Source: an uncultured Clostridia bacterium
GTDB taxonomy: Bacteria > Bacillota > Clostridia > TANB77 > CAG-465
Length of the DNA: 64,000 nt
Direction: 5' to 3'
Assembly (NCBI GenBank): GCA_947630145.1
Contig: CANRGL010000001.1
Location: 17,289 to 81,288, forward strand
Made by a program: the position numbers and the translations under genes. A model generated the notes under the pieces. It did no database searches. It was not told the origin of the DNA and worked only from the letters and a program-made list of their open reading frames with translations. Shown here piece after piece: positions 1-24,442 of the stretch (positions are counted from its first letter, which is position 1; the number at the start of each line of letters is the position of its first letter).

Positions 1-980
1 ACCCATTGGTCAACGAGATGCTGATATGGACAAACAATAATAACAGCTAATTTTCCACTTAGGTCTTTATATAATTGTGTTATAGCACCTAAACCTGTAT
101 ATGTTTTTCCAGTTCCTGTTGCCATATCAAATATTCCACGATAATTTTTTTCTTTCCAATTAGCTATCGCATTTTTTTGATAATTATGCAATAATACATC
201 TGCAGGTATTTCAGGACAATTAGTAACTGATTTTAATTTATTAATTTTCTCAGATTGAATTGACTGCTTTATTTTACTTGTAAATTCTTTTTCATCAATA
301 TTCCAATCTACGCATTCTTTTTTATAAGATAATATTCTATCTTTTGCAACTTTTGGAAAATCATATGTTACTGCACTTGTATCTTCATTATTCCATAATT
401 TATCAAATGCTTTTTCTTTTATCATTACTCTATCATTATCTTCCCATGATGTAAAAACATCCACTATTTCATAATTACTTATAAAAGCATTTTCTGTTTC
501 ATTCATAGAACCAGAAAAAGCAATTATATTATTTTCATTATCATACATTAAGCCAAGTTTTTCATGATATAAGCCTAATTTTTCATCTTTTAGTGAAAAA
601 GCAATTTTAATATCCAATTTTTCCTCAGCAATTAATGTTGCTAATAAGTTAAGTCTTTCTTCTTCAAAATAATTTTGAGGCTCTGTTATATATTGTAATA
701 ATGCTCTTTCAATAATGTTTTCTCTAACTTCATATCCTTTATTAATTGCCTCTATATCTTCTTCTGATAAATTTGGAGATACTATTAATTGAATTTTACC
801 TTTATTGTTCACTAATTTACTTATTCCATAAGAGATTTCTAACAAAGAAGATGATGAAAAAAAGCCAACACTTCTTTTATATAAAACTGATTCTTTTAAC
901 AAAGGAATATAAAATTCATTAACAATATCATCTCGTGGAGTTCTATATTCTTTTTTTAAATTAATATCTAATAGACTCAT
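1..980 (-). CDS. PLD-like nuclease domain + SF2 (DEAD/DEAH-type) helicase, N-terminal part; gene continues beyond window start
   Basis: The minus-strand reading frame starts with ATG at 980 (MSLLDINLKKEY...). It has an HxK...D...GSxN PLD-like motif (HEKLGLMYDNENNIIAFSGSMN). A Walker A motif (MATGTGKTYTG) lies near 1. It is not in the ORF track because it is truncated by the window edge. Confidence 0.6.
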   Translation of the reverse strand, partial: MSLLDINLKKEYRTPRDDIVNEFYIPLLKESVLYKRSVGFFSSSSLLEISYGISKLVNNKGKIQLIVSPNLSEEDIEAINKGYEVRENIIERALLQYITEPQNYFEEERLNLLATLIAEEKLDIKIAFSLKDEKLGLYHEKLGLMYDNENNIIAFSGSMNETENAFISNYEIVDVFTSWEDNDRVMIKEKAFDKLWNNEDTSAVTYDFPKVAKDRILSYKKECVDWNIDEKEFTSKIKQSIQSEKINKLKSVTNCPEIPADVLLHNYQKNAIANWKEKNYRGIFDMATGTGKTYTGLGAITQLYKDLSGKLAVIIVCPYQHLVDQW

Positions 981-1005: not shown

Positions 1006-2142
1006 TTATAAACTATTTAATGCATTAATTAAAGTATCAATATCATCCTTATTATTAAAATAATTTAACCCAACTCTTACTGTTCCACCATACTCAAGAG
1101 AACCTATAAATTCATGTATAAGAGGTGCACAATGAAACCCTGTCCTTACACATATATCAAATTCCTCATCTAATATTTTACCAACATCTTCAGAAGTATA
1201 CTTATCTACGCTAAAAGAAACAACTCCAAAAATTTTAGATAAATCATCTGGGGCATAAACATTAACTCCTTTTATAGACGACAACTGTTCTATTAAATAC
1301 ATTGTTAAGTTGCTTTCATGTTCAAATACTTTTACTTGATTTAGCCAGTCAATACTAACATTTAAACTAGATATAGCTACAATATTTGGGCTTCCAGCTT
1401 CATATCCTTCTGGGAAACTACACGGCATATTTGGATTCATGGTGTCTGAACCTGTTCCACCAAATATATTAGGTTTTATTATATCATCCTTTAATTTTAT
1501 ATACCCAGCTACTCCAAAAGAAGCATATAATGATTTATGACCTGCAAAAACAATATAATTTATATTACTATAATCGTTTATTTTTACAATACCATATCCT
1601 TGAGATGCATCTAATATGTTTATAGAATTATAGGTCTTTCCCAATTCAAATACCTCATTATAAGGAAGTAAATATCCTGTCACATTACTTACTTGTGAAA
1701 TAAAAATTGCAGCTGGATTATTTAAAATAAATAAATCTTTTGTTTTTTCGATATCTAATTTCCAAGTTTTATTATTAAATGGAAGTACCTTAATTGTAAT
1801 TTGTATTCTCTTTTTTAGTTCTTCTAATGGTCTTATTATAGAGTTATGTTCAAAAGGACTTACATAGACACAATCTCCTTTTTTTAAATTTATTCCAAAA
1901 ATAATATCATTTAAAGAACTGGTAGCAGAACTTGTAAAAACAACATTACCCTTATTTATATTGTTTAATTCTAAAATCTTCTTTCTAACATTTTCTTTTA
2001 TTATAGAAGCTTCTCGAGCAGGCTTATAACTTCCTCTTCCAGTGTTGAAAGCATTTCTATTTGCTCTATCTAATTCTTTATATACAATTTCTGGTTTTGG
2101 ATATGTAGTCGCTGCATTATCTAAATAAATCATATTGTACAC
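1006..2142 (-). CDS. class V aminotransferase / cysteine desulfurase (SspA/DndA/IscS-like)
   Basis: 378 aa. PLP-lysine motif HKSLYASFGVAGY and DASQ motif, fold V architecture. Lies 1 bp downstream of the big ATPase gene. Confidence 0.75.
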   Translation of the reverse strand: MYNMIYLDNAATTYPKPEIVYKELDRANRNAFNTGRGSYKPAREASIIKENVRKKILELNNINKGNVVFTSSATSSLNDIIFGINLKKGDCVYVSPFEHNSIIRPLEELKKRIQITIKVLPFNNKTWKLDIEKTKDLFILNNPAAIFISQVSNVTGYLLPYNEVFELGKTYNSINILDASQGYGIVKINDYSNINYIVFAGHKSLYASFGVAGYIKLKDDIIKPNIFGGTGSDTMNPNMPCSFPEGYEAGSPNIVAISSLNVSIDWLNQVKVFEHESNLTMYLIEQLSSIKGVNVYAPDDLSKIFGVVSFSVDKYTSEDVGKILDEEFDICVRTGFHCAPLIHEFIGSLEYGGTVRVGLNYFNNKDDIDTLINALNSL

Positions 2143-2143
2143 C

Positions 2144-5100
2144 TCACATATATTTTTTTATTATATTAACTAAAACACTTATCTTTTCTTTTTCTGTTAA
2201 AGAATCTCCGTATTCATTTATTACCTCTTCGATATTATTTCTCATAGTGTTTCCAATTGCTGAGATTTCATCATTTGAAATAATATATTTCTCTATTTTT
2301 TCACTACCATTAACTAGCAACAATTTATTACTTTCCTCTTTACAGTTACTTTTGTCATTTTTAACATTTTTTATATTTCCAATCATTTCTTTTAAATTTT
2401 CATTAAAACTTGTATAGTCACTTGGCTGCCAATCTTCTATATAAAATCCTGTTAAAATTTTTGCAATTTTCTCAATAACATCGTATTCGTCATGAGATGT
2501 TAAATTTCTAACATAATCTATAAATTCTTTTGTTCTAAATTCATAAATTACATACGAATTGTCTAATTCATTATCTTCATAAAATTCTTTTAATAAAGAT
2601 GTTAAACTTCCTTTAAAGCTTTTATTAAGAATTTCTTTTGTCTTAATAACCAACTTTTCTGAATATGTTGAAATAAAATTATCAAAGATTTTTTTCATAT
2701 TTTTAATTTCTTCTACTATCTTTAGATAATTAGTTGTATTAAATATATCACATAAAATTTTATACACAAATTCATTATTATTTATATCTGGCTTTAACAA
2801 TTCATTTTTTACATAGATATATTCTTCTTTTATTCCAAGATTATTAGTTTCTAAAGAATATTCTCTTAATATTCTTGGTAATGCTAAAACCCATCTTCTC
2901 ATATTATCTATTAGCTTTTTTAAATTTATTCTTTGAGTATCTAAATTAGGTACATCAAATATGTACATTAAATTTGACAAATATTTAATTTTATCTGCAG
3001 TTCCTTTTTCTGTTAATATAAAATATTTTTCTGGATTTTCATTTATTTTTATTAAATTAGTAGCATCTAAGTCTATTTCTTTATTCATGAAATAAATAAC
3101 AATTATATCTGAATAATTATATAAGGCCATTGAAATTAAAATAGGAATAATTCCTTTTCTAACAGCATATGGTTTACTTTGTAATTTTTTATATATTTTA
3201 TCAAATCCAATTTTATTGTTTTCACTTTCAGAAATAAATTTATTTATTAATTTAATAGTTTCACTTATAGATGGATTATTCTTTTTTTCAACAATAGCTT
3301 TATATATTGTTGCTTCAGCACTAGTTTTACTTTTTATTAAACTTTCATCATTATTTAATATTGTTTCTATTACTATATCTCTTGCTTTCTTTATAGGAGC
3401 AGACAGATCTCTTTTATTTATCATTTCATTATTGATAATAGGAGTTTTATCAAAAATTTTCATACATATATTTGATAAAAAAGCACTTATATTACTAACC
3501 TTTTTAAATGTCTCATTTTTATATAAATATTCTTGTATATTATCGTTTGAAAAGTACAATTTAACTTGTTCATTTATTGCCTCAATATTTTCCTTTTTTA
3601 TTAATTCTAATTCATTACCAATTTCATCTTTATTATTTGAATTTAAAATAAGATATTCTACTGCCCTATATTCCCTTAATAAAGAAATTATTGTTTTTGG
3701 AAAAATTGTTTTTGGTATTTTTAATACTACTTGTTCATTATTTTTTTTAGAGAAGTAATCTCTAATTTCTTGTATATTTCTTGACTCTCTTATTAAGTTT
3801 ATTACAATTCCATCACAATATTTTTTTTCAAATAATAAATCAAATTTACTTAAAGAAATAAGTTCTCTTTCATTCATAAATATATTGGAGAAAAATCTCG
3901 TAATTTTGAATTCTTCATTATATCTTCTTGGCAAAGAATAAATAGGATTAATAATCTCATTTAAAGTTCCTATTATATCTATGTCATAAAATTCAGACTC
4001 ACTTAATCTTTTTATTTCTTTTGATATTTCTCTATTATATATAGTTGAAAAATCTATTTCATTTGTAATTTTTTTTCGTTTTACTATGCTTTTTTCTATT
4101 AAATTTTCAATAGTTGTTTCATATTGTTCTTGAGATAAATTTAAAGATTCTTTTATTGTTTTATCATCTGGAATTAAATTTTCTAAATCATTTATCATAT
4201 ATATAATAGCTATTGATTTTATAATATTTTCTTCATTCTCACTTCTACACTTACTAATTGCATTTTCAGACTTAACCCATATCTCTTTTACATGTTGTTC
4301 GTTCTCTTTTTTTAACAGAGGTTTAAAATAATCATATATTTTATTTATATTAAATAAATCACCTGTGTTTTTTTCATTTTCTATAAAGCTTTTTAAACTA
4401 TTTGCATCATCATCAGTTAAAAAAGTAAATAATGTTCTTTCGTTCTGTGCAATTTTTTCAGATAGTTCAATAAGTGAATATGTAGTTATTGGATTAAGTG
4501 GAAAACATCCTTTAAATAGTATTTCTTCTATATTTTCGACATTTTTAAATATATTATTTTCTTTTAAATTATCATAAAAATTTACATTTTTATCATAGTA
4601 ATTATTATAATATTTTTCAAATCCTTCTTTTTTCTGTATTGCATAAGAAACTATTTCATAATTTTGTTCTAAACCTCTATTAAAGTATATTTCTTTAAAT
4701 CTGCCTTCAACAGTCTTGAATGCATTAGCTCTATCTTCATCTAAATTATTTGCGTATTGATTCATAGTCTTATGAGTTATGCAACTTAACAAAATTTGTT
4801 CATTATTTCCAGTTCTATTAGCTAATTCTGCAAAATCTTGCAATAATTTTAAATCTCTCATCATATGAGAATTATCCAAATATTCAAGAAATTTACTAAA
4901 TTCATCAAATACAATAAATATTCCTTTGTATCCTTTTTTTCCTAATTCGTAAGCCATATCTTTATAAGTTTTTATAATATCTGAATTAACTAGTGGATTA
5001 AACTCCTGGCCATGCAAAATACAACTATACACATTTTTAAAAATTTCGTAGTGCCTCTCCGAATAATTTTTTAATCCTTGTTTTAATTCTTTTAAATTAC

Positions 5101-5653
5101 AATCATACTCTTTCAAACATTTTTTTATTTCATCAATTGCATCCTTATAATTTTCTTCCCATTTTTCTATTACCTTTATAGCCACATCAAAATATGTATT
5201 TATAATTACATCTGATAATTTTTCTCTTTCAAGTGCTTCAGATAATGCTAACAAAAAAGCTTGATTTAAATCTCCATAATTACTATTTATTATTACTGGC
5301 ATTATTTTTTGTTTTTCTTTTCTTATTTTGCTAATCATTTCATATAATTCATTATCAATTTTTTTTATTTTTAAAATAAAATCATTTATATATGAAATAT
5401 CTTCTTTTTCATAGTCATCTAATAAAGTAATTAAAACAAGTAATAAATGTGACTTTCCTTTTCCGTAAGGTCCTATCAAAGTCGTAGCTCTATTTTTCCC
5501 ACTAATTATACTATTTAAATAACTTTTTAATAGCTCACATCCATCTTTTGTAGGTATATATTCTTTTAATTTTTCTATATTATTTATATCAAATTGTAAA
5601 TTTACTGAATATTGAAAATTTTCATTTACTCCTATTAAGTCTGTATATTTCAT
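2144..5653 (-). CDS. large P-loop NTPase, BrxC/PglY (DUF499)-like; candidate SspC-type ATPase
   Basis: 1169 aa with an N-terminal Walker A (LIGPYGKGKSHLL). Its size and P-loop context resemble BREX BrxC. It overlaps the upstream gene by 4 bp (ATGA), which suggests translational coupling. Confidence 0.5.
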   Translation of the reverse strand: MKYTDLIGVNENFQYSVNLQFDINNIEKLKEYIPTKDGCELLKSYLNSIISGKNRATTLIGPYGKGKSHLLLVLITLLDDYEKEDISYINDFILKIKKIDNELYEMISKIRKEKQKIMPVIINSNYGDLNQAFLLALSEALEREKLSDVIINTYFDVAIKVIEKWEENYKDAIDEIKKCLKEYDCNLKELKQGLKNYSERHYEIFKNVYSCILHGQEFNPLVNSDIIKTYKDMAYELGKKGYKGIFIVFDEFSKFLEYLDNSHMMRDLKLLQDFAELANRTGNNEQILLSCITHKTMNQYANNLDEDRANAFKTVEGRFKEIYFNRGLEQNYEIVSYAIQKKEGFEKYYNNYYDKNVNFYDNLKENNIFKNVENIEEILFKGCFPLNPITTYSLIELSEKIAQNERTLFTFLTDDDANSLKSFIENEKNTGDLFNINKIYDYFKPLLKKENEQHVKEIWVKSENAISKCRSENEENIIKSIAIIYMINDLENLIPDDKTIKESLNLSQEQYETTIENLIEKSIVKRKKITNEIDFSTIYNREISKEIKRLSESEFYDIDIIGTLNEIINPIYSLPRRYNEEFKITRFFSNIFMNERELISLSKFDLLFEKKYCDGIVINLIRESRNIQEIRDYFSKKNNEQVVLKIPKTIFPKTIISLLREYRAVEYLILNSNNKDEIGNELELIKKENIEAINEQVKLYFSNDNIQEYLYKNETFKKVSNISAFLSNICMKIFDKTPIINNEMINKRDLSAPIKKARDIVIETILNNDESLIKSKTSAEATIYKAIVEKKNNPSISETIKLINKFISESENNKIGFDKIYKKLQSKPYAVRKGIIPILISMALYNYSDIIVIYFMNKEIDLDATNLIKINENPEKYFILTEKGTADKIKYLSNLMYIFDVPNLDTQRINLKKLIDNMRRWVLALPRILREYSLETNNLGIKEEYIYVKNELLKPDINNNEFVYKILCDIFNTTNYLKIVEEIKNMKKIFDNFISTYSEKLVIKTKEILNKSFKGSLTSLLKEFYEDNELDNSYVIYEFRTKEFIDYVRNLTSHDEYDVIEKIAKILTGFYIEDWQPSDYTSFNENLKEMIGNIKNVKNDKSNCKEESNKLLLVNGSEKIEKYIISNDEISAIGNTMRNNIEEVINEYGDSLTEKEKISVLVNIIKKYM

Positions 5654-6507
5654 AGTATTCCTCCTTCGAAATATTCTTTCATAATATCCTCAAGAGATAA
5701 TTTCTTTTGAAAATAAACCATATTCAAGCCTGCAGTTCTGTTAATAATAATTAAATTATTTCTTTTCATTTCATCTAAATATTCGTTTATTAAATTTTTA
5801 TCCAAATTTAATAACTTAGCAGGACTATTATCTAATTTTAGTAGTTCATCTATGCTTATATAGTCCTTGTCATTTACAAGTTGCTCTATTAAGTAAAAAA
5901 CAATTAAATAGTTCAAATTTCTATAATCTGGTCTATTCCTTTCATAAGTATCTCTATCTATTTTCTTTATTAAATTTAAATCTGATAATGGTGATATAAA
6001 GTTATTTTCAGGATTATCAATTTTCTCATCAATAGCATATGTTTTTATTATCATGTTCACTTCATCTTGTAATATATTTTCATTATATTCTAGTTTTTCA
6101 TTTTTTAGATTTGTAACCAACTGCTCATAAATATCTCTTTTTGAAAATGACTTTCTTAAACATTTATTAAAAAACATATTATATATATAAGCATCATCTA
6201 AATTTAGCATCATATTAACATGTACTAGCCACCATGAAAATATATCTTCTAAATATGGATCATAATTCCCTATTAAATTTCCAAATTCTGATAGTTTTAT
6301 TTCTCTGTTTTCTTCTTTAATTAAGCAAGTAGCACTCATCCAATATTTTAACGATTTAACCATATTGTTTCCAATTCCCAATATGTCTGTTGCTTCTGCA
6401 GAAGAAAAAACTTTATTATTATTTTTTACATTTCTTATTCCTTTAGCCAGCCATCCTTCTCTTATTGAAAAGCTTTCATGTCTTTTCAGTTTCAATTTTA
6501 TATCCAT
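5650..6507 (-). CDS. hypothetical protein, possible SspB-like (DUF4007-like) component
   Basis: 285 aa with an N-terminal HESFSIREGWLAKG motif. It sits between the PAPS-reductase-like gene and the ATPase gene with 5 bp and -4 bp spacing. Confidence 0.3.
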   Translation of the reverse strand: MDIKLKLKRHESFSIREGWLAKGIRNVKNNNKVFSSAEATDILGIGNNMVKSLKYWMSATCLIKEENREIKLSEFGNLIGNYDPYLEDIFSWWLVHVNMMLNLDDAYIYNMFFNKCLRKSFSKRDIYEQLVTNLKNEKLEYNENILQDEVNMIIKTYAIDEKIDNPENNFISPLSDLNLIKKIDRDTYERNRPDYRNLNYLIVFYLIEQLVNDKDYISIDELLKLDNSPAKLLNLDKNLINEYLDEMKRNNLIIINRTAGLNMVYFQKKLSLEDIMKEYFEGGIL

Positions 6508-6512
6508 TCATA

Positions 6513-8264
6513 TTACCCCTTACCTTGTTTTGTTCTTAAAACTTTTTTCATATAACATCCACCACTAAAGTGTTTAACGCATTCTAGACAACTTACACAT
6601 TTATTTTCATCTATTTTATATAAAATATTAAAATTATCTCCGACTTGCTTATCTAAATGCTTTATTGTAATTGCATTAAATTTACAAACACTTTCACATG
6701 CCATACATGCTATACACGTTTGAAATTTTGTAACTTGGTTTTTTATTAACATTTCTGTATTCTTACTATTATTAAATATTTTTGTTTCTTTTAATACTGA
6801 TATTTTTAACAAGTTTTGACCAAATTTTCCCCTAAGTTTCAATATAGGTTCTTTTGTTTTCTTATCCAAAACATATACCTCTCCTAGTCTTTTATTTCCA
6901 ATGCTAAAATCAATTATTCCAAAAGGTTTAAATAATTCATATAAGTTACTATCAATAGTTTTATTTAGCTCGAAATTATATGTATTTTCTTCCAAAACAC
7001 ATGGCTTAAAGCTTAAAATAGCATTAGAACTATATTTTAAGCCATTTCCTCCTTGTCTAGCTTTCCAACCACCAGAATTAATATATTCTTTTGGATCAGG
7101 TTTTCCAACTTGAGTTGCAAAATCTAATAAAACATTATGAAATTTATCATATTGTTCTTTCATATATATATTTGATAAATATTCTGACCAAGAAGAATTA
7201 TTTGGGCAACACCAACATCCAACTCTTGAAAATCCTTTTCTATATGCACTGTTGAAAGGTATTTTTTTTGTTAATATATATAACCATACATCAAAATCTA
7301 ACCAATCTATAATTGGTGCAATAGTCTGTTGTTTTGTAATTTTTGTGCCTACACTTTCTCTTTCATATTTACTTCTTGCTAATGATTCATTCCTTCTTAA
7401 TCCTTGAAATGTTAAAATTTTTAATTTATCTTTAAATGTAGATTCAATTTTTCTAGTAATTGCACCTGTTTTAAATATTGTACAACACCATCTCATAACT
7501 CTACTAGGAGGTCCTATAACTTTGCACAATTCATTAAAATTTTGTTCCTTATTCTTAGCTATCAATAATGGAGTTGCAGGGTGAGATTTTTTAAATTCAT
7601 TTATATATTCTTTTGTTTCAGGATATTCTAGTGTAGTATCTCCATATATATGTATTATTTTTTCAGTATTAAGAGCATTTATAACTAAATCACTTGTAAC
7701 AGTTGAATCTTTTCCACCAGAAAAAGATACAAACATTGTGTCAATAGTATATTGATTTGTAATTTTTTTTATATAATCATGTGCCTCCGTAACTATAGCA
7801 TTATATCTTATTTTATTAGCTTCAATAAATTTCAAAATATATTGTTGATTAAAAAAATTATCTTCATATACTCTGTTTTTTTCTTTATTTTCTATTATCA
7901 TGTTTCTAATTTCATTTGCATCTTTATTTTCGATTATGTCTTTAATAACAAATCTGTGTTTCTTTCCATCAATAAAGTAGTTATTACCTGATGTATTCCA
8001 TATTGATTTTTCAGCATATTTAAAAGGTTCTCCCTCTATTACTTCTATCAATAATCTTTCTTCAGGAAAAACAGGTCTAATATCTGTCCCTATATATACA
8101 CCATCACCATTACATATAGAACATTTTTTTTCAAAAATAGGAATATTACAATTTTTACAATAATATATTTCTGATTTATCAACATATGTTCTTCCATTGC
8201 AAACAGGACATGTACTTGTTTCGCACATTAAATTATCACAATTATTACATACATATCTAATCAT
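6513..8264 (-). CDS. PAPS reductase-family PP-loop ATP pyrophosphatase (SspD/DndC-like) with N-terminal Zn-ribbons and C-terminal 2x[4Fe-4S] ferredoxin domain
   Basis: PP-loop SFSGGKDS. Cys clusters CWCCP and CxxC x4 at the N-terminus. C-terminal CIACMACESVC...CVSCLECVKH. The ORF extends to 8327 but AGGAGG + ATG (MIRYV) at 8264 is the likely start. Confidence 0.7.
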   Translation of the reverse strand: MIRYVCNNCDNLMCETSTCPVCNGRTYVDKSEIYYCKNCNIPIFEKKCSICNGDGVYIGTDIRPVFPEERLLIEVIEGEPFKYAEKSIWNTSGNNYFIDGKKHRFVIKDIIENKDANEIRNMIIENKEKNRVYEDNFFNQQYILKFIEANKIRYNAIVTEAHDYIKKITNQYTIDTMFVSFSGGKDSTVTSDLVINALNTEKIIHIYGDTTLEYPETKEYINEFKKSHPATPLLIAKNKEQNFNELCKVIGPPSRVMRWCCTIFKTGAITRKIESTFKDKLKILTFQGLRRNESLARSKYERESVGTKITKQQTIAPIIDWLDFDVWLYILTKKIPFNSAYRKGFSRVGCWCCPNNSSWSEYLSNIYMKEQYDKFHNVLLDFATQVGKPDPKEYINSGGWKARQGGNGLKYSSNAILSFKPCVLEENTYNFELNKTIDSNLYELFKPFGIIDFSIGNKRLGEVYVLDKKTKEPILKLRGKFGQNLLKISVLKETKIFNNSKNTEMLIKNQVTKFQTCIACMACESVCKFNAITIKHLDKQVGDNFNILYKIDENKCVSCLECVKHFSGGCYMKKVLRTKQGKG

Positions 8265-8385
8265 TTTATCTCCTCCTATTTTATCTAAAATCAAAAAAAT
8301 TATATCATATTTTTTTTGGAGAAACAATTAATAAATAAAAATTTTCTCCAGTTTTTAAAAAATTTATAGACTAGTCTAAATTAGC

Positions 8386-11160
8386 CTAGTCTATGTATTT
8401 TAAAATATCCCACTGATTAATTTCATCCTCATATTTTTCTCTACTTTCATAAATGCAATCTGTACTTGAATCTAAATAAAATTTTTTTCTATTTATAAAC
8501 TGTCTAATATAAAATTCTTCAACATTAATATTATATTTTTCTTCTATTTCATTTTTTATCTCTTTTATATATTTTTTATTTTTATTAACAAAACTATTTA
8601 TAAACTTCTCTCTTGTAGCAGACTCTTCAGTTTTAATAAATATAGTATTATTTTTCATTCTGAATCTTTTTACTTTCGGAATAATCATAATCAAGTTTTC
8701 ATAAAAACAATCTGGAAAATTATTTTTTAAAATTTTATTTTTAAAATCAGTATTTAATGTATATAAATTAAAATATTCATTTTCAGGAATAACCTTTTCA
8801 ATTTCCTCAATAAAAAGATTTATATCTTCCATAAAAATGCCCATGTCATTAAGTTTTTTTATTGTAATATATTTTTCATCTGATATTTTAAATAATTTCT
8901 TATCATAAATAAATTTATACAAATAACTAAAAAATGTTGAGCCTATCTTTTTCATTTCTTCAGGTATTTCGTAATAATCGTTAGAAATAATTATATCTTT
9001 AAGATAGCTCTCTAAATTTACTATGTTGTCTTTTATAATATAATTTCCCCTTAATTTATATCCTAATTTACTCAAATTTAATGAATTTAAAAGTCTAAAA
9101 TCATTTACATCGAATAAATCTGTTAACATTTTTTTCATTGTAGCTATAGAATATATATCTTCTTTTAGTTTTTCTTTCATAACCTCAAATTGTTTATTAT
9201 CAAATAACTGTACATTACATATAAGCATACTTAAATTTATATAATGGCTAAAGTTATTAACTACATATGATTTGAATGTATTTAACTTATGACCATAATT
9301 GTTATACATATATTTAACAAAATCATCAATACTAATAGGAGAAAGTTCTTGAATTTTCTCATCAACAAACTCTAGTTTATTATTACAATTTATAAATATA
9401 TCTGGCATTCTTGAATAAACTATACCTTCATCAAATTTTCCTAACACCTTTTTACATAAATTATGAAGTTCGTATTCGTTTCTTATATCTAATTTTTTCA
9501 TTAATAAAGGATTATCTTTATAAAATAATTCTGCTGAATATATTCCTGGCTCAATATCAAACATTTCTTTAAGTTCAGCTATGTCATCTTCTTCTATTTC
9601 ATTACAATTATAATATCTAAAACTTTTTCCTATTGTATCTAATATATAGTTTGTCCTTGTTAGTCTCGAATCTATATTTCTAAAGTCTTCTGCTGTTAGA
9701 AAATCTAAATTAAGTTTATATTCAATAACTATTTGATTATAATTTATCATTAATTCATTATAATCTACTCTTCTGTCTTCTTTTTTTAAATAAGCAATAA
9801 TAATAGGAATCGTATCTGCAACAATATTTTCTTCATTATATCTTATAATATTGTACTCTTTTCTTAAAATTTCTATCTGCTCACTTGTTAGCCTATTATC
9901 TTCTAAAAGCTCTGATGGTTTTAACTCACCATGTTTACCTTTCTCTCGCAAATAATAATATACATAATTTTCTAAATTAAATAATTTGCAAAACAATTCT
10001 TCTTTAAAATCATATTTTTCAATATAATCTAAATATTTTTCTTCTTCAATATGGTTAATTTTTTTCAATTCACTTGCTATTATTTGCCTTATTCTTTCTC
10101 TAGTTAGGTTATACTCATTACCTATTTGCACTAATGTATAACCTGATAATTTTTTCATTACAATATCATAATGATTATTATTTTTTTTAATTTTATCTAA
10201 TTCTTCTATTAATTTTGGATAAGTACTTCTATATTTACCATTCTCATAAATAATTTCATTGTTTTCTAGTAATTCATTAAAGAATTTATCAAATTTTTCT
10301 ATATTATACCTTTTTGCTTCGATAATATTTTTAATTTCTTCTTTTAATGCGACTCCTGTTTTTAGCTCTTTTCTCATTATAGTTAATATAATTTTCTTAT
10401 CTAAATTCTTCTTTATGTCTAAATCAATTATCATTTGATTGTATGCATTTAATAATCTTTCTTTCTTTGCAGCAGTTAGGTGATATTTATCTCCAATTGT
10501 TTCATCTATATCTTCAAATCTAATATTTTTTTCAACAAGTAGCTTTTCTATTAAACACCTAGAAAGTCCATATCTTTCTAATTCATATACAGAATATGGC
10601 ACATTATAATTATCATTATTTTTACTTAATTTTTTCATTTCAACTAATTCAGATATAATCTTATTTAACTTTTCTGTTGTATATCCTTTTTTTTCTATTA
10701 TTTGTACAAGTTCTTCTATCGAAAAAGTATTATGTCTAAATGAATTATTTATTATTTCCAAAGTTTTTTGAGTAGTCAATCCAAGATTTATGTTTTTATT
10801 TTCAAAAAAAGCATTTAAAGATGTAATTATTTTAGCATATGTAGAATCTCCTATATTATATTTTTCTTTTATAGTTTCATTTATGTCTTCAATTTCTATT
10901 TTTTTGCTAAATAATTTATCTATTATATTTTTTGATAATCCGTACTTAATAAGTTCATATATAGAATATTTTTTCTTATCTTCACTTATCTTCATTAAAC
11001 TAGTTTTTATTTTTAACTTTTTTTCGCTATGTGAACCTAAATACTTATCTACACAATCTATATTACTATATATATCTTCTAGATTTATTCCTTCATTATC
11101 TAAATTCATTATAGTATTTAATGGTATACCGTATTCACAAAGCAAATAAATCGATTTCAT
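8386..11160 (-). CDS. large hypothetical DNA-binding protein: three alphaCTD-like helix-hairpin-helix repeats + sigma-70 region-4-like HTH
   Basis: 924 aa. A roughly 55-aa repeat occurs three times (YELxxYGLSxxxIxKLxxxxIxxEDIxETIxxKY). Residues about 335-365 (LSGYTLVQIGNEYNLTRERIRQI) match a sigma-70 r4.2 pattern. Confidence 0.4.
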   Translation of the reverse strand: MKSIYLLCEYGIPLNTIMNLDNEGINLEDIYSNIDCVDKYLGSHSEKKLKIKTSLMKISEDKKKYSIYELIKYGLSKNIIDKLFSKKIEIEDINETIKEKYNIGDSTYAKIITSLNAFFENKNINLGLTTQKTLEIINNSFRHNTFSIEELVQIIEKKGYTTEKLNKIISELVEMKKLSKNNDNYNVPYSVYELERYGLSRCLIEKLLVEKNIRFEDIDETIGDKYHLTAAKKERLLNAYNQMIIDLDIKKNLDKKIILTIMRKELKTGVALKEEIKNIIEAKRYNIEKFDKFFNELLENNEIIYENGKYRSTYPKLIEELDKIKKNNNHYDIVMKKLSGYTLVQIGNEYNLTRERIRQIIASELKKINHIEEEKYLDYIEKYDFKEELFCKLFNLENYVYYYLREKGKHGELKPSELLEDNRLTSEQIEILRKEYNIIRYNEENIVADTIPIIIAYLKKEDRRVDYNELMINYNQIVIEYKLNLDFLTAEDFRNIDSRLTRTNYILDTIGKSFRYYNCNEIEEDDIAELKEMFDIEPGIYSAELFYKDNPLLMKKLDIRNEYELHNLCKKVLGKFDEGIVYSRMPDIFINCNNKLEFVDEKIQELSPISIDDFVKYMYNNYGHKLNTFKSYVVNNFSHYINLSMLICNVQLFDNKQFEVMKEKLKEDIYSIATMKKMLTDLFDVNDFRLLNSLNLSKLGYKLRGNYIIKDNIVNLESYLKDIIISNDYYEIPEEMKKIGSTFFSYLYKFIYDKKLFKISDEKYITIKKLNDMGIFMEDINLFIEEIEKVIPENEYFNLYTLNTDFKNKILKNNFPDCFYENLIMIIPKVKRFRMKNNTIFIKTEESATREKFINSFVNKNKKYIKEIKNEIEEKYNINVEEFYIRQFINRKKFYLDSSTDCIYESREKYEDEINQWDILKYID

Positions 11161-11322
11161 TTCTACAACTCCTATCTAATTAATTTCTACTTCATATTCT
11201 TTTCAGATTTTATTTACAAGCATTATTATATAACAAAACTAAAAAAATACCAATAGATATACATTTTTATTCTATTTCGTAAAAAAATGCTCACAGTAAT
11301 TACCTATAAGCATCTAAATATT

Positions 11323-11562
11323 TTATTTTATTTCATTTAATATTCTTTTTATGTTTCTTGCTTGTCTTCCACTTATTCTATTATTAACTCTAGCTAGATT
11401 AACTAATGCTAAGACATTATCAAAAGTACAAACAGCTGTATTTCCTCTACTTTTTTTCTCATAATAATATTTCATCTCATCTATTACATAATCAGGTGTA
11501 TATTTGGGAAGTTTATCTAATTCAGATTCCATGATTTTTCCTCTTTCTACAATTTGTGTCAA
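11323..11562 (-). CDS. small hypothetical protein divergent from XRE regulator
   Basis: 79-aa ORF, divergently arranged to the HTH gene with a palindromic operator between them. Confidence 0.35.
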   Translation of the reverse strand: MTQIVERGKIMESELDKLPKYTPDYVIDEMKYYYEKKSRGNTAVCTFDNVLALVNLARVNNRISGRQARNIKRILNEIK

Positions 11563-11698: not shown

Positions 11699-11950
11699 AT
11701 GGAATTATCAGAAGCAATTAGAAAAAGAATTAAATATTATTTGGGAAAAAATAATATGAATGTCTGGGCTTTATGTAAGTCTTCAGGAGTACCATGTTCA
11801 ACTATTTCTACTTTTATGAGTCATAGGACAGATCTTATAAGAATGGATACTTTACTTCACATTTGTGAAGGATTTAGCATTACTTTAGAAGAATTTTTTT
11901 CTGACGATATATTTAATAATACATATCACGATATTAACAACAAAGACTAA
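11699..11950 (+). CDS. XRE/Cro-C1 family HTH transcriptional regulator
   Basis: 83 aa with a HTH_3-like core (NMNVWALCKSSGVPCSTISTFMSHRTDLIRMDTLLHICEGF). One of only two plus-strand genes. Confidence 0.7.
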   Translation: MELSEAIRKRIKYYLGKNNMNVWALCKSSGVPCSTISTFMSHRTDLIRMDTLLHICEGFSITLEEFFSDDIFNNTYHDINNKD

Positions 11951-16571: not shown

Positions 16572-17351
16572 CTATATCTTTTTCGCAATTACAACCATTC
16601 TTCCATTTTTTTGTGAATATTCACAAGTAGATAGTGTTATATATTTATCCTTATGTGTTCCTACAACTCCTGTATAATAAAACTCAGTTTCTCTACATCC
16701 ATTTACAAACTCAATATAATCTGTTGAATTTTCAAAATCAGTATAACAATAATACTTAAATCCTAAATCTGTATATACAGTAGTTTTAAATGAAATCATA
16801 ACTTCATATACATTTTCGATAGTTTTTCCATTTTCTATTGTATATAACTTTATATATTTATGATTAAGATAAAAATTATAATTTTTATATTTTTCTAGCT
16901 GAGAAAACATTGTATTATCGCTCATATTATGACCATATATTATTAAATTATCTGATTTTTTTAAATCACAATAAAAAGCTAAATATGGTGTACCATGATT
17001 AGAATAATTTTTATAAATATCCTTATGAAGATAATAATCACCATTTTGCATTACAGGATAATTTATATTTGTTCCATCTATTTTTATCCAAGCAACTACA
17101 TCATCATTTATAAGTTTTACATTTTCTAAATTATAGTTATTATCTTCTTCATTATTTATTTTATTTTCTTGTTTCAATAAATTTTCTTTCTCATTTTGCG
17201 TATCATTCTCATCTACTTTTATAACTTCCTGTAAATCGACAAATATATCATTTTCTTTTTTATTTTCTATTAACTCTTTAATTAAAAAATAGCTACTAAT
17301 AGCTAATATAACTATTAGTAGCATTATAACTATTTTACCTAACTTATTCAT
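16572..17351 (-). CDS. sortase, class B-like
   Basis: N-terminal TM segment. Active-site His motif IIYGHN. TLSTC catalytic Cys motif. 259 aa. Overlaps the VirB4 gene by 8 bp. Confidence 0.7.
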   Translation of the reverse strand: MNKLGKIVIMLLIVILAISSYFLIKELIENKKENDIFVDLQEVIKVDENDTQNEKENLLKQENKINNEEDNNYNLENVKLINDDVVAWIKIDGTNINYPVMQNGDYYLHKDIYKNYSNHGTPYLAFYCDLKKSDNLIIYGHNMSDNTMFSQLEKYKNYNFYLNHKYIKLYTIENGKTIENVYEVMISFKTTVYTDLGFKYYCYTDFENSTDYIEFVNGCRETEFYYTGVVGTHKDKYITLSTCEYSQKNGRMVVIAKKI

Positions 17352-19686
17352 TTAATGCTTCACCTGGCTTTGTAGTCATCAACCTATATAGCTCAGTATT
17401 CTTTGGAAATCGATTTACAAAAGGAACATTTGCAGATCCTACACGCATTAAACCTTCTCCTACACCTACATTTGTTATAAAACTCATCTGTTCATCAGAT
17501 ATATTAAGTAATTTTCCAAGTTCTAATCTATCAGAATATGCTTGATTTAACATTATAATAAATTCAGAATTTGAAAGCATAGTTCGTGCTGTATGACTTT
17601 GTAATAAATCTTCCACGTTTTGTGTAATTCCAGTGCAATATGCTCCATATTTTCTTACTCTTTTCCAAAGTGTAAATAAAAAGTTTGCTGAATATTCATA
17701 TTGAAATAACAAATATATTTCATCGATAAAAACATAAGTATTTTTTCCTTTTGTTCTATTTGCAGTTATTCTATTAAAAATACTATCAAGCACTACCAAC
17801 ATTCCTATTGGAAGTAGTTGTTTTCCTAAATCCAATATGTCATAACAAATCAAATGATTATTAGTATCAACATTAGTATTAAGTGCAAAAGTATTTAGTG
17901 AGCCATTTGTAAATAACTCGATGGCAAGTGCTATTTCTTTGCTCTCATGTTCTTCCTGTTTTAATAATTCTTCTCTAAAGTCTTGTAGTGTTGGAGGTAT
18001 GCCTTGATAATTTCCCTGTTGGAATACTCTATAAACATTAGCAGTACATCTATCAATAATAGACTTTTGCTTTGGGCCAAGATTACCACTACCTATAAGT
18101 TGCTCACATAAAGACAAAATAAACTCTGATTTTAGGATTACTGGATTTGCTCCATCTCCATATTCAGAATTCAAGTCTAAAGGATTTATATGATTATTAC
18201 TAGACGCTGATATTTTTATTACTTCCCCACCTAATGCTTTTACAAGTGAAGAATATTCTGCCTCAGGATCTAAAATTATTATATCTGCCTCAGGATCTTT
18301 TAACTTTATAGTTGTTATTTCTTCTTTTGCAATAAACGATTTTCCTCCACCTGATACACCTAGAATAAAACTATTACCATTTAATAATTGTTTTCTATCT
18401 ACCATAATCATGTTCTTGCTAATTGCATTTTGACCATAAAAGCTACCATTTTCGTGCCTAATTTCCTGTACTTTGAATGGCATAAATACAGCAAGTGATT
18501 CTGTTGTAAGAGTTCTTAAAGCATTTATTTTTCTAATTCCAAATGGTAGTACAGTTTCTAATCCTTCTAATTGTTGGTATCTTAATACTCCCATTTGGCA
18601 TAAATTTTTTCCTGCAATTTGTTTAATAGTATCAGTTAATACATCAAGTTTTTCTTTCGTTTCTTCAGTTATTACCATTGTTAAAACAGATAAAAACATT
18701 CTTTGATCACGAGTTGTAAGGTCATCTAGAAATTCCTTACTTTGTTCTCTTTGTTGTTCCATATCATAAGGAATAATAGCTGAAAAGTTATTGTTCGCAT
18801 TTTGCTTTCTTTGCCAATTTGAAATATTTGTTTCTATTCCTAATCTTCTATTCTCTGCCTCTTTAACTGCCTCATCCATTGGGATTGGTATAATGTCAAG
18901 CGATAACATCATATTTTTGTTAAGTTCTGTAAGTTCGGTTACCATCGAATCTTTTATATAATTAGGATAATGTTTTAAAAATAGTACTCTACCATATCTA
19001 TTTCCAATTTTAAAATAGTCACTTTTAAATTTTGCACTATCTGGACAAATCATATCTTTAAAATTATGTCCTAACTTCATGTTTTCTTGAATATTAAATG
19101 AAAATGATGTTTCTTCACCTGTTCTATAAAAATCATGAGCAATCCTTAATCTTTCTTGTGTATCTAATCCTATACATTTTGAGCCTAATGCTGTAAAATG
19201 ATTATTTAACTCTGAGCCTATTCTTGAAAAATAGTTTCTCGCTTCCTCAATCGACCTTTTATATACTGAAATAGTTATTATTTTTTCTTGTACAATTTCA
19301 TTAGCATTTTTAGATTGAGAAATAAGCATTTCATTATACTCTTTTCTGTATTTATCTAGATCATCTCCTTTTTCTTTTAATAAAATTTTCTTTCTAAAAT
19401 CTAGTTTATTTATTCTTCTATTATTTATAGTTATTTTTGTTGTAGCACCTGTATCTAGAGAATTAAGTAATGCAGAATATTCTAAAAACATCGCCTCTTT
19501 ATCTTCTCCACTTGCAACTGCATAGTTTATATCTGTGAATATATATGATTTTGAATATTTATTTTTTCCAATTAAAAATATTCCATCTTCCCATATAGAT
19601 TTAATTGGAATAATATCTTGAACATATTTTGGTACTTTTATTTTTTCCTTGTCTAGTTTGATAATTCTACTAAGTGTTTTCAACAT
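17344..19686 (-). CDS. VirB4/TrbE/PrgJ-family type IV secretion ATPase
   Basis: 780 aa. Walker A GVSGGGKSF. IILDPEAEY and the C-terminal NTPase region are typical of VirB4. Confidence 0.85.
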   Translation of the reverse strand: MLKTLSRIIKLDKEKIKVPKYVQDIIPIKSIWEDGIFLIGKNKYSKSYIFTDINYAVASGEDKEAMFLEYSALLNSLDTGATTKITINNRRINKLDFRKKILLKEKGDDLDKYRKEYNEMLISQSKNANEIVQEKIITISVYKRSIEEARNYFSRIGSELNNHFTALGSKCIGLDTQERLRIAHDFYRTGEETSFSFNIQENMKLGHNFKDMICPDSAKFKSDYFKIGNRYGRVLFLKHYPNYIKDSMVTELTELNKNMMLSLDIIPIPMDEAVKEAENRRLGIETNISNWQRKQNANNNFSAIIPYDMEQQREQSKEFLDDLTTRDQRMFLSVLTMVITEETKEKLDVLTDTIKQIAGKNLCQMGVLRYQQLEGLETVLPFGIRKINALRTLTTESLAVFMPFKVQEIRHENGSFYGQNAISKNMIMVDRKQLLNGNSFILGVSGGGKSFIAKEEITTIKLKDPEADIIILDPEAEYSSLVKALGGEVIKISASSNNHINPLDLNSEYGDGANPVILKSEFILSLCEQLIGSGNLGPKQKSIIDRCTANVYRVFQQGNYQGIPPTLQDFREELLKQEEHESKEIALAIELFTNGSLNTFALNTNVDTNNHLICYDILDLGKQLLPIGMLVVLDSIFNRITANRTKGKNTYVFIDEIYLLFQYEYSANFLFTLWKRVRKYGAYCTGITQNVEDLLQSHTARTMLSNSEFIIMLNQAYSDRLELGKLLNISDEQMSFITNVGVGEGLMRVGSANVPFVNRFPKNTELYRLMTTKPGEALNE

Positions 19687-22645: not shown

Positions 22646-24442
22646 TTATAAAAATAAATTTTCTATTTCTTCTTCAGATAATAATTCATAATTTTTATCT
22701 TTTAATTCTAAATCAGTAATATTTTCAGAATTTATATCATTATCAAAATCAAATGAAATACTACCTATTGCATTATCAGTATTACCATGTATATACGGCT
22801 TGATATTCTTATTTCCAATAGGTGTTCTAACACTATTAAAATGTTCTTTAAGATTAAATTTTAAATCTTTTACAGGTCTTTCTCCTCTTATAAAGAGTAA
22901 AGCATATCTATTATCTAACATTCTTACTTCATCAGGTGTTAGTAATTCTCTTCCTGCAATTTGGTCATTAGTAGAATAACTACCATGTGAGCCATAACTT
23001 CTTCCATAAGAATTGATATCAATAGTTTCTTTACCTAACAATTCTGATACATACTTATGCGTTGATTGTTCATTTCCACCTAAATATAAAAAAGAATCGC
23101 AGTTTCCGATTATACTTTCCCATTGCTTTTCAAATAAAGCCTTTAATTGTGCTAAATTTTGTAGAATGATAGAAACTGAAACTTCTCTTGAACGCATAAC
23201 TGAAAGTATTTTGTCAAAATCGTCAGGCAAACTTACATTAGCAAACTCATCCATTACAAAGTGAACATGTATTGGTAGACTTCCACCATATTTATAATCT
23301 GCTAAATAAAATAATTGTTGAAAGAGTTGTGTATATAATATACTTACAAGAAAATTAAATGAGGTGTCACTGTCTGGAATTATTGCAAATAATGCCACCT
23401 TTTTTTCTCCTAAACTTGCTAAATCTAGTTCATCTGTTTGTGTAAGCTGTGCCATACTTTCTAAATTAAACTTTTCAAGTCTTGCTGCTAAAGTTATTTG
23501 TATAGACTTTAAAGTTTTAGCACTTCCTGAATGATATGCCCTATAATATTTTAAAGCTATATGCTCTGGATTTCTTGTTTCTAGTCTATTAAAAAGCATA
23601 TCAAGTGGACTTACATAGTCATCATCATCTTCTTTAACATCTCCAGCTCTTAATAGTTCCATAACCATAACGAAGTTTTGCTCATCTTCTGGTGCTTCAT
23701 ACTTTAGATAAAAAATTAAAGCTAAAAGTAACATACTTGCTGCAGTATCCCAAAAAGGATCATTTGTTGTACTTCCTTTTGGAGTAGTAGATTTGAATAG
23801 GTTAGTTACTAATTTTTGAACATCATTGTCTGACTTCAAATATACAAATGGGTTATAGCAATAAGATTTTTCCATGTTTATTAAATCTAACACTTTTACT
23901 ACATATCCATTTTCTTCTAATAGATGTCCAGTATCTCTTACAATTTCTCCTTTCGGATCTAATACAACATATGAAGAATTACATTGAAGAACATTAGGCT
24001 TACAGTAGCTAAATGTTTTTCCTGCACCACTACCACCAACAACAATAGTATTAAGATTTCTTCTATGCTTTCTTCCATCTAATCCAATAGCAACATTTTT
24101 AGTTAGAATTTTATTATAATTATTAGGTTGTTTATATTTTTTATTTATTTCACTTGCCTCGCCCCATTTAGCAGAGCCATTTTCTTCTCTTCTCCTATAA
24201 TTTTTTTTAGTTGACTCATATAATAATATTGATAATATGTATATAAATAAAAAAATAAGAATAGTTCTTATACTATTCTCTGTAAATGTAATATGAAATG
24301 GATTATTTAAAGCAATACTACCGTTTTTTACAATTTCAATGAGTCCACCTTTAATATAAGGAGCAATTAGAAGTGCTATCCATATAACAGGTATTAAACC
24401 AAAAAAATATAAAACTCTAATAATTTTCTTTTCATCTTTCAA
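22646..24442 (-). CDS. VirD4/TraG-family type IV coupling protein
   Basis: 598 aa with N-terminal TM helices. Walker A VVGGSGAGKTF and the TraG/VirD4 core. Confidence 0.85.
   Translation of the reverse strand: MKDEKKIIRVLYFFGLIPVIWIALLIAPYIKGGLIEIVKNGSIALNNPFHITFTENSIRTILIFLFIYILSILLYESTKKNYRRREENGSAKWGEASEINKKYKQPNNYNKILTKNVAIGLDGRKHRRNLNTIVVGGSGAGKTFSYCKPNVLQCNSSYVVLDPKGEIVRDTGHLLEENGYVVKVLDLINMEKSYCYNPFVYLKSDNDVQKLVTNLFKSTTPKGSTTNDPFWDTAASMLLLALIFYLKYEAPEDEQNFVMVMELLRAGDVKEDDDDYVSPLDMLFNRLETRNPEHIALKYYRAYHSGSAKTLKSIQITLAARLEKFNLESMAQLTQTDELDLASLGEKKVALFAIIPDSDTSFNFLVSILYTQLFQQLFYLADYKYGGSLPIHVHFVMDEFANVSLPDDFDKILSVMRSREVSVSIILQNLAQLKALFEKQWESIIGNCDSFLYLGGNEQSTHKYVSELLGKETIDINSYGRSYGSHGSYSTNDQIAGRELLTPDEVRMLDNRYALLFIRGERPVKDLKFNLKEHFNSVRTPIGNKNIKPYIHGNTDNAIGSISFDFDNDINSENITDLELKDKNYELLSEEEIENLFL

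Follow-up and report, generated by a model that had tools for sequence, protein, structure and literature searches.

A large protein joining RNA polymerase-derived modules to a winged-helix array beside a mobile Ssp-Pbe cluster: a possible adaptor subunit from another nuclease-helicase system

In this report, we focus on a single gene, termed X, and on its connection to the phosphorothioate restriction-modification (R-M) genes that lie next to it in a 64,000-nucleotide stretch of DNA (the window) from an uncultured Clostridia bacterium (assembly GCA_947630145.1, contig CANRGL010000001.1, positions 17,289 to 81,288 of the forward strand). Coordinates are positions in the window, and residues of X, the protein of the open reading frame (ORF) 8386..11160, are counted from its ATG. 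According to its structure models, X is built solely of small nucleic-acid- or protein-binding modules: three degenerate double helix-hairpin-helix, or (HhH)2, repeats, nine winged helices and one sigma-70 region 4. The main context of its family is a cassette formed by X, a ParB-like protein that we call Y and a SNF2 helicase, and not phosphorothioation. Our preferred reading, which remains tentative, is that X might be a non-catalytic adaptor or reader subunit from a nuclease-helicase system, recruited as an accessory to an SspDBCA-PbeABCD cluster borne by an integrative conjugative element (ICE). An initial annotation had proposed a sensor or regulator of the defence locus, and this is a fair wording for the two hypotheses that we place first.

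The system of the window is itself a phosphorothioate R-M system of a known kind; its X family has no described function in the literature searched. Phosphorothioate systems (Dnd, Ssp, Pbe and BREX type 4) attract much current research, and their literature describes the multi-winged-helix (wHTH) modules of SspB/DUF4007, DndG and BrxA, as well as sigma-like helix-turn-helix (HTH) motifs in BrxL and DndH (PMC10853773, PMC12914056, PMC12839542). In the papers searched on these systems, no protein combining the C-terminal domain of the RNA polymerase (RNAP) alpha subunit (alphaCTD), sigma region 4 and a winged-helix array is described, nor any X-like component.

Domain architecture of X

The 924-amino-acid (aa) ORF announced by the initial annotation is real and lies on the minus strand (8386..11160), as do all the features of X described below. 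It starts with an ATG preceded by an AGGAG ribosome-binding site, in a window that is strongly AT-rich (G+C about 22-30%), and its layout (repeats R1 to R3, probably alphaCTD-derived, the winged helices WH1 and WH2, a sigma region 4 and a C-terminal array of winged helices in tandem) is drawn from the translation, 71 homologues and AlphaFold2 models. These models were built for the two halves of the protein from a 36-sequence alignment, and they reach a pLDDT of 87.5 for the N-terminal half and of 88.6 for the C-terminal half (pTM 0.83). The modelled order is R1, R2, WH1, R3, WH2, sigma region 4, about seven further winged helices, a three-helix unit and a terminal helix. WH1 (residues 128-187, 10600..10779), which sits between repeats R2 and R3, shows the H-H-H-E-E pattern in the model, and WH2 (residues 253-313, 10222..10404) is assigned from the predicted secondary structure.

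The 550 or so residues that follow the sigma segment had been noted as unknown sequence. This description can be replaced, as they are confidently modelled as an array of about seven winged helices plus the three-helix unit (residues 386-906, 8443..10005), an assignment that draws on AlphaFold2, Foldseek, mosaic identity and the tree of C-terminal halves. The best Foldseek matches of this half in the PDB are tandem winged-helix proteins, namely UFL1 (1.7e-4), Pol III C82, SelB and STK19. No enzyme fold was found in X by Pfam, in the models of both halves or by Foldseek against the PDB. In the Pfam scan, Sigma70_r4 is the sole match, with no WYL or other sensor domain, and the PADLOC and NCBIfam scans matched the sigma-4 stretch alone, including a weak match to MzaA.

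The near-invariant motif of the family, D-I-R-(D/N)-E-Y-E-L-H-N-L-x-x-K (residues 558-571, 9448..9489), lies on helix 3 of WH5. Among 85 family members, Y563, E564 and L565 are found in 100% and H566 in 97%, and (D/N)EYELHNLxxK (561-571), together with R515 and P586, is the most conserved element (97-100%). P586 is located on the wing of the same winged helix, a domain with a net charge of -6. A nuclease of the PD-(D/E)xK or His-Me type was considered for the conserved stretch 515-590 and rejected, by inference from the predicted secondary structure of this stretch, which is that of a canonical winged helix.

The RNA polymerase-derived head

The central observation of the initial annotation, that RNAP-derived modules are combined on one large multidomain protein, stands, since a sigma-4 domain is present together with repeats that are probably alphaCTD-derived. 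Region 4 of sigma-70 (region 4.1 and the HTH of region 4.2) spans residues 322-380 (10021..10197), with the recognition helix TRERIRQI at 353-360; it is supported by Pfam, by matches to PDB sequences and by invariant columns. The Pfam model Sigma70_r4 (PF04545) matches residues 338-368 with an E-value of 9.4e-6 and 25.5 bits against a cut-off of 24.1, which bears out the earlier assignment, and residues 315-387 compared to PDB sequences retrieve region 4 of RpoD, SigA and RpoS only (best 4.9e-6). TRERIRQI is identical to the recognition helix of primary sigma factors, and it is invariant or nearly invariant across the X family. The NCBIfam sigma models (RpoD and RpoS) match X through their last 40-70 positions only, and Sigma70_r2 and Sigma70_r3 have no Pfam match in X, the remainder of which is modelled as HhH units and winged helices. 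X lacks sigma regions 1-3 as well as the alpha N-terminal domain, which rules it out as a subunit of RNAP.

The three repeats of about 55 aa also proposed at the outset do exist and are related to each other, but they are not contiguous, since WH1 separates R2 from R3. R2 (residues 65-122, 10795..10968) and R3 (residues 189-246, 10423..10596) share 50% identity across 56 aa (E 5e-14); the repeat unit is of about 57 aa. R1 (residues 3-60, 10981..11154) is a degenerate (HhH)2/alphaCTD-like unit that is connected to R2 by BLASTP (E 2e-5); its modelled helices run from 4-10, 14-22, 27-32, 34-41 and 46-60, and the predicted helices of the repeats are compatible with an (HhH)2 unit.

The likeness of these repeats to alphaCTD has indirect support only. 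On the one hand, HHalign against a profile of the alphaCTDs of the family gives full-length, in-register alignments for all three (P = 0.002 for R1, 0.02 for R2 and 0.003 for R3), and distant full-length homologues carry two to three alphaCTDs (PF03118, E about 1e-30 to 1e-33) at equivalent positions ahead of sigma region 4. On the other hand, PF03118 has no Pfam match in X. A hidden Markov model (HMM) iterated from the clear copies converged on 139 domains in 65 proteins, none of them from the clade of the window, and it did not reach the window repeats even at E<=10. A profile of 33 repeat units found no alphaCTD among PDB sequences (best match a haemagglutinin, E 0.46), and Foldseek of the N-terminal model against the PDB returned weak tandem winged-helix and sigma-factor matches, with alphaCTD absent from the top 50. 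The canonical alphaCTDs of the family match the C-terminal domains of RpoA among PDB sequences, including the Bacillus subtilis alphaCTD 1z3e_B (E 1.9e-6), and in the 139 domains the equivalents of R265, N268, G296, K298 and S299 are kept in 93%, 88%, 89%, 70% and 61% (S/T 86%), respectively. The columns equivalent to Escherichia coli R265 and N268, which we take to be DNA-contact residues of alphaCTD, are occupied by N/M, N/D and C/E in the window repeats, per the alignment. The window repeats are thus probably degenerate alphaCTD descendants that no longer bind DNA in the alphaCTD manner, judging from their sequences.

The N-terminal 320 residues used as a homologue query returned just four fragments. 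Some Ssp-linked X proteins of 800-805 aa (L016, L017, L018, L097 and L098) have an N-terminus about 120 residues shorter and keep the full C-terminal half; their sigma-4.2 helix stands at residue ~230, versus 353 in the window protein, so that members of the clade differ in how many alphaCTD-like repeats they have.

X could also be a decoy or an RNAP-docking sensor, in which the sigma-4 and alphaCTD modules, as mimics of host RNAP parts, would serve as bait for hijackers of transcription (anti-sigma or alphaCTD-targeting factors) or would dock X onto the RNAP core via the beta-flap; the associated nucleases would be triggered upon transcription takeover or upon transcription of foreign DNA. 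We regard this as improbable. In its favor, region 4.2 is almost the same as in primary sigma factors and not close to the HTHs of the ECF or LuxR type, and the PDB entries matched by region 4 include the sigma-4 complexes 1tlh, 4g6d and 4g8x, which are complexes with the phage proteins AsiA and gp67. The canonical alphaCTDs of the family align closely with that of B. subtilis with signature residues kept, the acidic winged helix with its invariant EYELHN hints at a single partner in all contexts, the N-terminal head changes more quickly and has been swapped between lineages, and the SNF2 partner of the family is reminiscent of RapA, an RNAP-associated protein of the SNF2 type. However, this reading is pure inference, the window repeats are too degenerate to mimic a real alphaCTD, and the conserved DNA-contact residues are equally compatible with plain DNA binding.

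The X family and its genomic contexts

The C-terminal half of X is matched by 969 clusters at 50% identity (E<=1e-3), 704 of which remain at E<=1e-10. The EYELHN motif pattern retrieved 158 relatives in species-representative genomes, mostly from Bacillota, with some Fusobacteriota and a few others. X belongs to this family through its sigma-4.2 TRERIRQI followed by an array of winged helices of about 550 aa with (D/N)EYELHNLxxK, R515 and P586; NCBI names the family members 'sigma factor-like helix-turn-helix DNA-binding protein'.

We surveyed the context of 80 loci by calling their ORFs and comparing these to reference neighbours. X is followed by Y (about 400 aa) and then by a SNF2 helicase in 32 of the 80; this helicase is of about 620 aa or, often, carries an additional PLD domain at its N-terminus that brings it to about 860 aa. 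Y adjoins X in 47 loci, 15 of which have no helicase; a long Y is found in 11 of these 15, five times with an N-terminal Swt1-like HEPN domain and six times with a C-terminal extension. The X-Y and Y-SNF2 gaps are mostly of -4 to +5 nt, which indicates translational coupling. The order X-sspD-sspB-sspC-sspA-pbeA of the window occurs in 6 of the 80 loci, with X 49-72% identical to the window protein. No recognised partner is present in 27 loci, about half of which lie on contigs that end too early to tell; other partnerless X genes stand beside glycolysis genes, peptidases, a type I R-M system or a Dcm methylase.

Y carries an invariant ParB-type DGxxIDGNRR motif (DGRIIDGNRRFTCLR), 18 of 43 Y members weakly match ddrB-ParB and the UniRef name is ParB/Sulfiredoxin domain protein; a Y profile found no significant match among PDB sequences. 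By BLASTP, no Y homologue is present in L001, a contig identical to the window, or in other Ssp-linked loci, so that the X of the window lies outside the X-Y-SNF2 cassette.

Examples of this cassette are L010:10001-16553, L003:10001-16031 and L124:6206-11881, the last one on the Enterococcus faecalis plasmid pQZ076-2; F. pseudoperiodonticum (CP024705) carries it as well. It is found on 48 Enterococcus plasmid records, with generic annotation only, and it gave no tblastn match in the phage genome collection. MutH/Dcm and Mrr genes lie near other X loci, and, of 10 neighbours sampled, four encode a type IV restriction enzyme, GajB, a PifA-like protein and PDC-S48, which suggests from gene content that X cassettes lie in defence islands. 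Neither X nor Y is represented by a model in PADLOC 2.0. The X-Y-SNF2 cassette is a candidate for an undescribed defence system, spread over Enterococcus plasmids, gut Clostridia and Fusobacteria and absent from PADLOC 2.0.

Several variants of the cassette were observed. The HEPN-Y form (L091:3614-11842; also L081, L083, L085 and L092) has a Swt1-like HEPN domain (E 7e-28) and its Y upstream of X; in L091, HEPN-Y is preceded by a UvrD-type helicase and by an exonuclease that weakly resembles RNase_T. A 2013 survey of HEPN domains lists Swt1-like HEPN-ParB fusions and does not list an X partner (PMC3710099). In L060, a weak SIR2-like gene comes after a Y with a C-terminal extension, and in L086 a SLFN-type helicase follows X. 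A second X-like paralogue (about 660 aa, E about 1e-30 to X) stands between X and Y in L030:11863-13854 and L041:11872-13854 (Flavonifractor/Pseudoflavonifractor).

A lineage of X associated with Ssp-Pbe

Conservation of X next to the modification genes in other genomes is confirmed within its own lineage. Starting from X, sspD is adjacent in 8 of 8 loci (L001, L007, L013-L018); starting from SspD in a metagenome scan, X precedes sspD in the three loci with an SspD at least 75% identical and upstream sequence present (L095, L097 and L098). The genes upstream of X differ between elements, which are always mobile, and sspD is always the next gene downstream in the Ssp clade. Further away, sspD-B-C-A(-pbeA) loci with an SspD 42-67% identical have unrelated genes upstream and no X, and sspB-C-D-A-pbe loci with an SspD 38-40% identical also do without it. 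X is thus an optional accessory acquired by one lineage of Ssp-Pbe clusters.

The two halves of X have followed different paths. Within the Ssp-linked clade, the C-terminal halves share 55-82% identity in four of the five members compared (36-68% for P0038), and the N-terminal halves share 30-50%, falling below detection in the WH2 segment. P0056, from an X-Y-PLD-SNF2 cassette, shows the reverse pattern relative to the window protein, with 45-70% in the N-terminal half and 25-35% in the C-terminal half. A neighbour-joining tree of C-terminal halves groups proteins by partner set and places the Ssp clade beside solo and Y+PLD-SNF2 members. From these identities and this tree, the C-terminal half of X is seen to co-vary with the partner system and the N-terminal head to be exchanged between lineages. 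The PLD domain of the SNF2 partner is 42% identical to PbeA over 219 aa (E 4e-42); the PbeA-type PLD nuclease is consequently the sole effector module common to the ancestral context and the window cluster.

One may ask whether X is linked at all to Ssp-Pbe in function, as it could be a mobile-element protein of a generic kind, DNA-binding or nucleoid-associated, that was co-inherited by chance. The existence of related Ssp-Pbe clusters that do without X, its probably separate transcription unit and the existence of solo copies would fit such a neighbour. Against it, the Ssp-linked C-terminal half forms its own well-conserved clade and the intergenic architecture is conserved in loci whose X is 49-76% identical to the window protein; above all, sspD follows X in every locus of the clade despite varying upstream genes, which makes this explanation unlikely.

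The X-sspD intergenic region

The gap of 58 bp reported between X and sspD does not stand. The TTG at 8327, on which that gap depends, lies in a -35-like hexamer, and the probable start of sspD is the ATG at 8264, so the gap is of 121 bp; this ATG is preceded by AGGAGG and gives the 583-aa SspD that gene callers report. A terminator-like hairpin, ATAGACTAG...CTAGTCTAT, overlaps the stop codon of X and is followed by a T-run (8357..8394, minus strand, read from the sequence). Its stem co-varies in 8 homologous loci; the terminator scan missed it because its loop is of 11 nt. Downstream of it, the sspD promoter region (8299..8351, minus strand) is conserved in the 8 loci and comprises an inverted repeat, TGGAGAAA-N18-TTTCTCCA, over a -35-like TTGTTT, a 17-nt spacer and an extended -10, TGATATAAT. 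This architecture is the one retained at 49-76% identity of X. With a terminator and a promoter in the gap, X probably forms its own transcription unit and is not the first gene of the ssp operon, contrary to the earlier proposal that it heads the modification operon.

A related inverted repeat, TGGAAGAA...TTCTTCCA, is found upstream of sspD in Ssp-Pbe loci that lack X (L100, L106 and L107). We considered the sspD-promoter repeat as an X-specific operator and rejected this, because related repeats occur in X-less loci; it is probably an operator for some other regulator of ssp-pbe operons. Upstream of X itself, a promoter-like site, TTGGTA-17-TATAAT (11225..11253, minus strand), matches the consensus only and is not conserved between loci, and comparing loci revealed no conserved autoregulatory site there. 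A 69-aa ORF lies directly upstream of X (11323-11531, minus strand), followed by a divergent 83-aa XRE-type HTH protein (weak HTH_26; 11699-11950, plus strand), and in L007 a different pair, HTH_3 and a 208-aa ORF, occupies the same place. These small ORFs may regulate X or the ICE.

It is here that the principal rival has to be weighed, namely that X would be a transcription regulator of ssp-pbe, a large analogue of BrxR, DndB or R-M controllers that would bind the promoter via its sigma-4.2 HTH or its winged helices, and that could, for example, time restriction against modification after ICE entry into a new host. X lies upstream of the enzymes, set apart by the terminator-like hairpin and with its own promoter-like site; the sspD promoter region with its inverted repeat over the -35 is strongly conserved, the sigma-4.2 helix retains the residues that read the -35 box, solo X genes exist, and the cluster is a cargo of conjugative elements, where control of establishment matters. 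All this agrees with a regulator, but the inverted repeat is shared with X-less loci and hence not specific to X, no conserved element upstream of X indicates autoregulation, and X is mostly coupled translationally to Y and the helicase, as a stoichiometric subunit would be. In addition, with 924 aa and 13 domains, X is far larger than known defence regulators, and no WYL or other sensor domain was found by Pfam. We therefore hold the regulator to be a serious alternative, yet on the unlikely side.

A possible adaptor for nuclease-helicase machinery

In the adaptor reading that we tentatively prefer, one lineage of X would have left a ParB-like/SNF2-PLD system and joined an Ssp-Pbe system carried by an ICE. 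The C-terminal winged-helix array would dock X onto effector machinery, here most plausibly the PbeA-type nuclease-helicase, because no other component is common to the window cluster and the ancestral context. The N-terminal head would supply targeting: as its sigma-4.2 helix keeps the -35-reading residues of primary sigma factors, it could bind -35-like DNA or possibly the RNAP beta-flap. X would in this way direct or license restriction on incoming DNA, with SspABCD marking self DNA. If X does target or license the Pbe nuclease-helicase, this would explain an added level of invader recognition or of establishment control in one ICE-borne lineage.

Several observations weigh against such an adaptor. 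Ssp-Pbe clusters of the same gene order exist without X, and the X-less clusters show no compensating domain difference as judged from the lengths of SspD, SspC and PbeA. In the Ssp lineage, X is not translationally coupled to any gene, and the covarying terminator hairpin and conserved promoter precede sspD; this separation suits a separately expressed factor such as a regulator. Solo X genes beside housekeeping genes indicate that X may act alone. Finally, most X domains are not basic, including the motif-bearing winged helix, which weakens a purely DNA-binding picture of X.

A broader possibility, which we find doubtful, is that X is the common subunit of an undescribed defence class, in which detached promoter-recognition modules of RNAP on a winged-helix scaffold would act as bait or as a handle on RNAP or promoters. 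ParB-like, SNF2, PLD, HEPN or Pbe effectors would in this way be tied to transcription takeover or to foreign DNA being transcribed, and the window would hold such a sensor grafted onto an ICE-borne phosphorothioate R-M system. If true, employing the promoter-recognition modules of RNAP away from the polymerase itself would be a new principle by which foreign DNA or a takeover of transcription could be sensed.

Comparison with known systems

The donor modules of X are those of RNAP: it shares regions 4.1/4.2 and TRERIRQI with sigma-70, and members of its family have two to three clear alphaCTDs; it differs by its missing sigma regions 1-3 and alpha N-terminal domain and by the degenerate state of the window repeats. 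Among defence proteins, MzaA, a sigma-70-like protein of the MZA anti-phage system, is also associated with a sigma region 4, and it is the sole PADLOC/NCBIfam defence model touched by X. However, the match covers about 45-70 residues of region 4 only, with 28.6 bits against an equivalog cut-off of 800, so that X is not an MzaA. Apart from region 4 of X, the scanned proteins of the window cluster have no Mza match, its neighbours being Ssp and Pbe genes. The SspE, SspFGH and DndFGH models (DUF262/DUF1524 etc.) do not match X in PADLOC or Pfam.

The multi-wHTH modules of SspB, DndG, BrxA and FokI type are fast-evolving winged-helix arrays proposed to scan or recognise DNA for enzymes (PMC10853773, PMC12839542). 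X is likewise an array of winged helices (nine of them), but it is much larger, includes RNAP-derived modules and coexists with a canonical SspB, and no sequence relation was detected; the FokI-like N.BspD6I gave a non-significant Foldseek match to the C-terminal half (E 0.75). UFL1, the Pol III subunit Rpc82/C82, the SelB C-terminus and STK19 use chains of winged helices as protein or nucleic-acid scaffolds. The likeness of the C-terminal half of X to them is one of repeated fold only, with TM-scores of 0.1-0.2, 10-15% identity and no sign of common descent or of a shared function.

Like the WYL proteins BrxR and CapW, and like DndB, X lies upstream of defence genes, is probably transcribed separately and accompanies more than one type of system. 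In contrast to them, it has no WYL and no DGQHR/ParB domain by Pfam, the ParB-like protein of the family being the separate partner Y, and it is usually coupled to effectors. With 924 aa and no WYL match, X does not belong to the WYL-type regulators (wHTH+WYL+WCX, about 300 aa). PglW, the kinase of BREX type 2/Pgl, has an alphaCTD-like HhH module, and the first alphaCTD of the X-family protein P0065 matches residues 802-863 of the PADLOC PglW model (1.5e-9); PglW is a kinase-containing enzyme, whereas X has no kinase or other catalytic domain.

The Ssp-Pbe cluster and its mobile element

The modification operon foreseen downstream of X is indeed there, as sspD-sspB-sspC-sspA, but the cluster does not end with it and continues into a restriction part, pbeABCD. 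All the genes are on the minus strand. The sspD-like gene (6513..8264, 583 aa) encodes a PAPS reductase with a 4Fe-4S ferredoxin domain (Pfam PAPS_reduct 1.2e-34; PADLOC BrxP 3.6e-83, SspD 2.6e-11), and its product resembles the BrxP-type PAPS reductase of BREX type 4 more than the canonical short SspD. The N-terminus of this protein (8202-8264) has a Cys-rich zinc-ribbon-like motif, CNNCDNLMCETSTCPVC, and its C-terminal end is the ferredoxin domain. It is followed by sspB (5650..6507; Pfam DUF4007 2.1e-76, PADLOC SspB 2.1e-52), by sspC, which encodes a BrxC-like ATPase (2144..5653; PADLOC SspC 6.6e-104), and by the cysteine desulfurase gene sspA (1006..2142; Pfam Aminotran_5 6.2e-64, PADLOC SspA 5.8e-28), so that all four components of an SspABCD module are adjacent by PADLOC.

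The PbeABCD module is complete as well, with only its first 980 bases inside the window. These (1..980) are the 5' part of pbeA, which encodes a PLD/HKD nuclease fused to an SF2 helicase and runs off the window; it is assigned from its translation and from the full-length PADLOC PbeA match (7.1e-247) on L001. On the identical contig (L093:11154-16059) are found pbeB (52 aa), pbeC (674 aa, AAA_23/SMC_N) and pbeD (185 aa, PF27807, DndE-like), and two tyrosine integrases come after pbeBCD. This direct joining of an Ssp module to PbeABCD is seen again in numerous metagenome loci, arranged either D-B-C-A or B-C-D-A; in the Pbe papers retrieved, Pbe is linked to Dnd modules or methylases. In spite of its BrxP-like protein, the cluster is not a BREX type 4 system, as no PglZ (BrxZ) or BrxL is present in it on L093 and DUF4007 is a separate gene, as in Ssp.

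Upstream of X, the window carries UmuC/YolD-like genes, a CHAP hydrolase, a sortase, a coupling protein, a relaxase and thioester adhesins. The ICE backbone extends over 12384-36567 (UmuC/YolD-like genes, CHAP hydrolase, sortase etc.) and includes VirB4 (17344-19686), the coupling protein (22646-24442), the relaxase (25382-26773) and a 2405-aa polyvalent protein with SNF2 helicase and LPD16 domains (29350-36567). The chromosomal genes recG, gatB and proS lie at the far end of the window; with conjugation genes upstream and chromosomal genes at this end, the Ssp-Pbe cluster is a cargo near one end of an ICE. Three large SpaA-repeat surface proteins are also encoded (37096-40677, 48170-51373 and 51534-55559). 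Two SpaA-repeat proteins have thioester domains (TED), and their domain coordinates match over the first ~760 residues (TED 69-163, SpaA 669-757), which suggests, from the sequences compared, a recent duplication with a change in repeat number.

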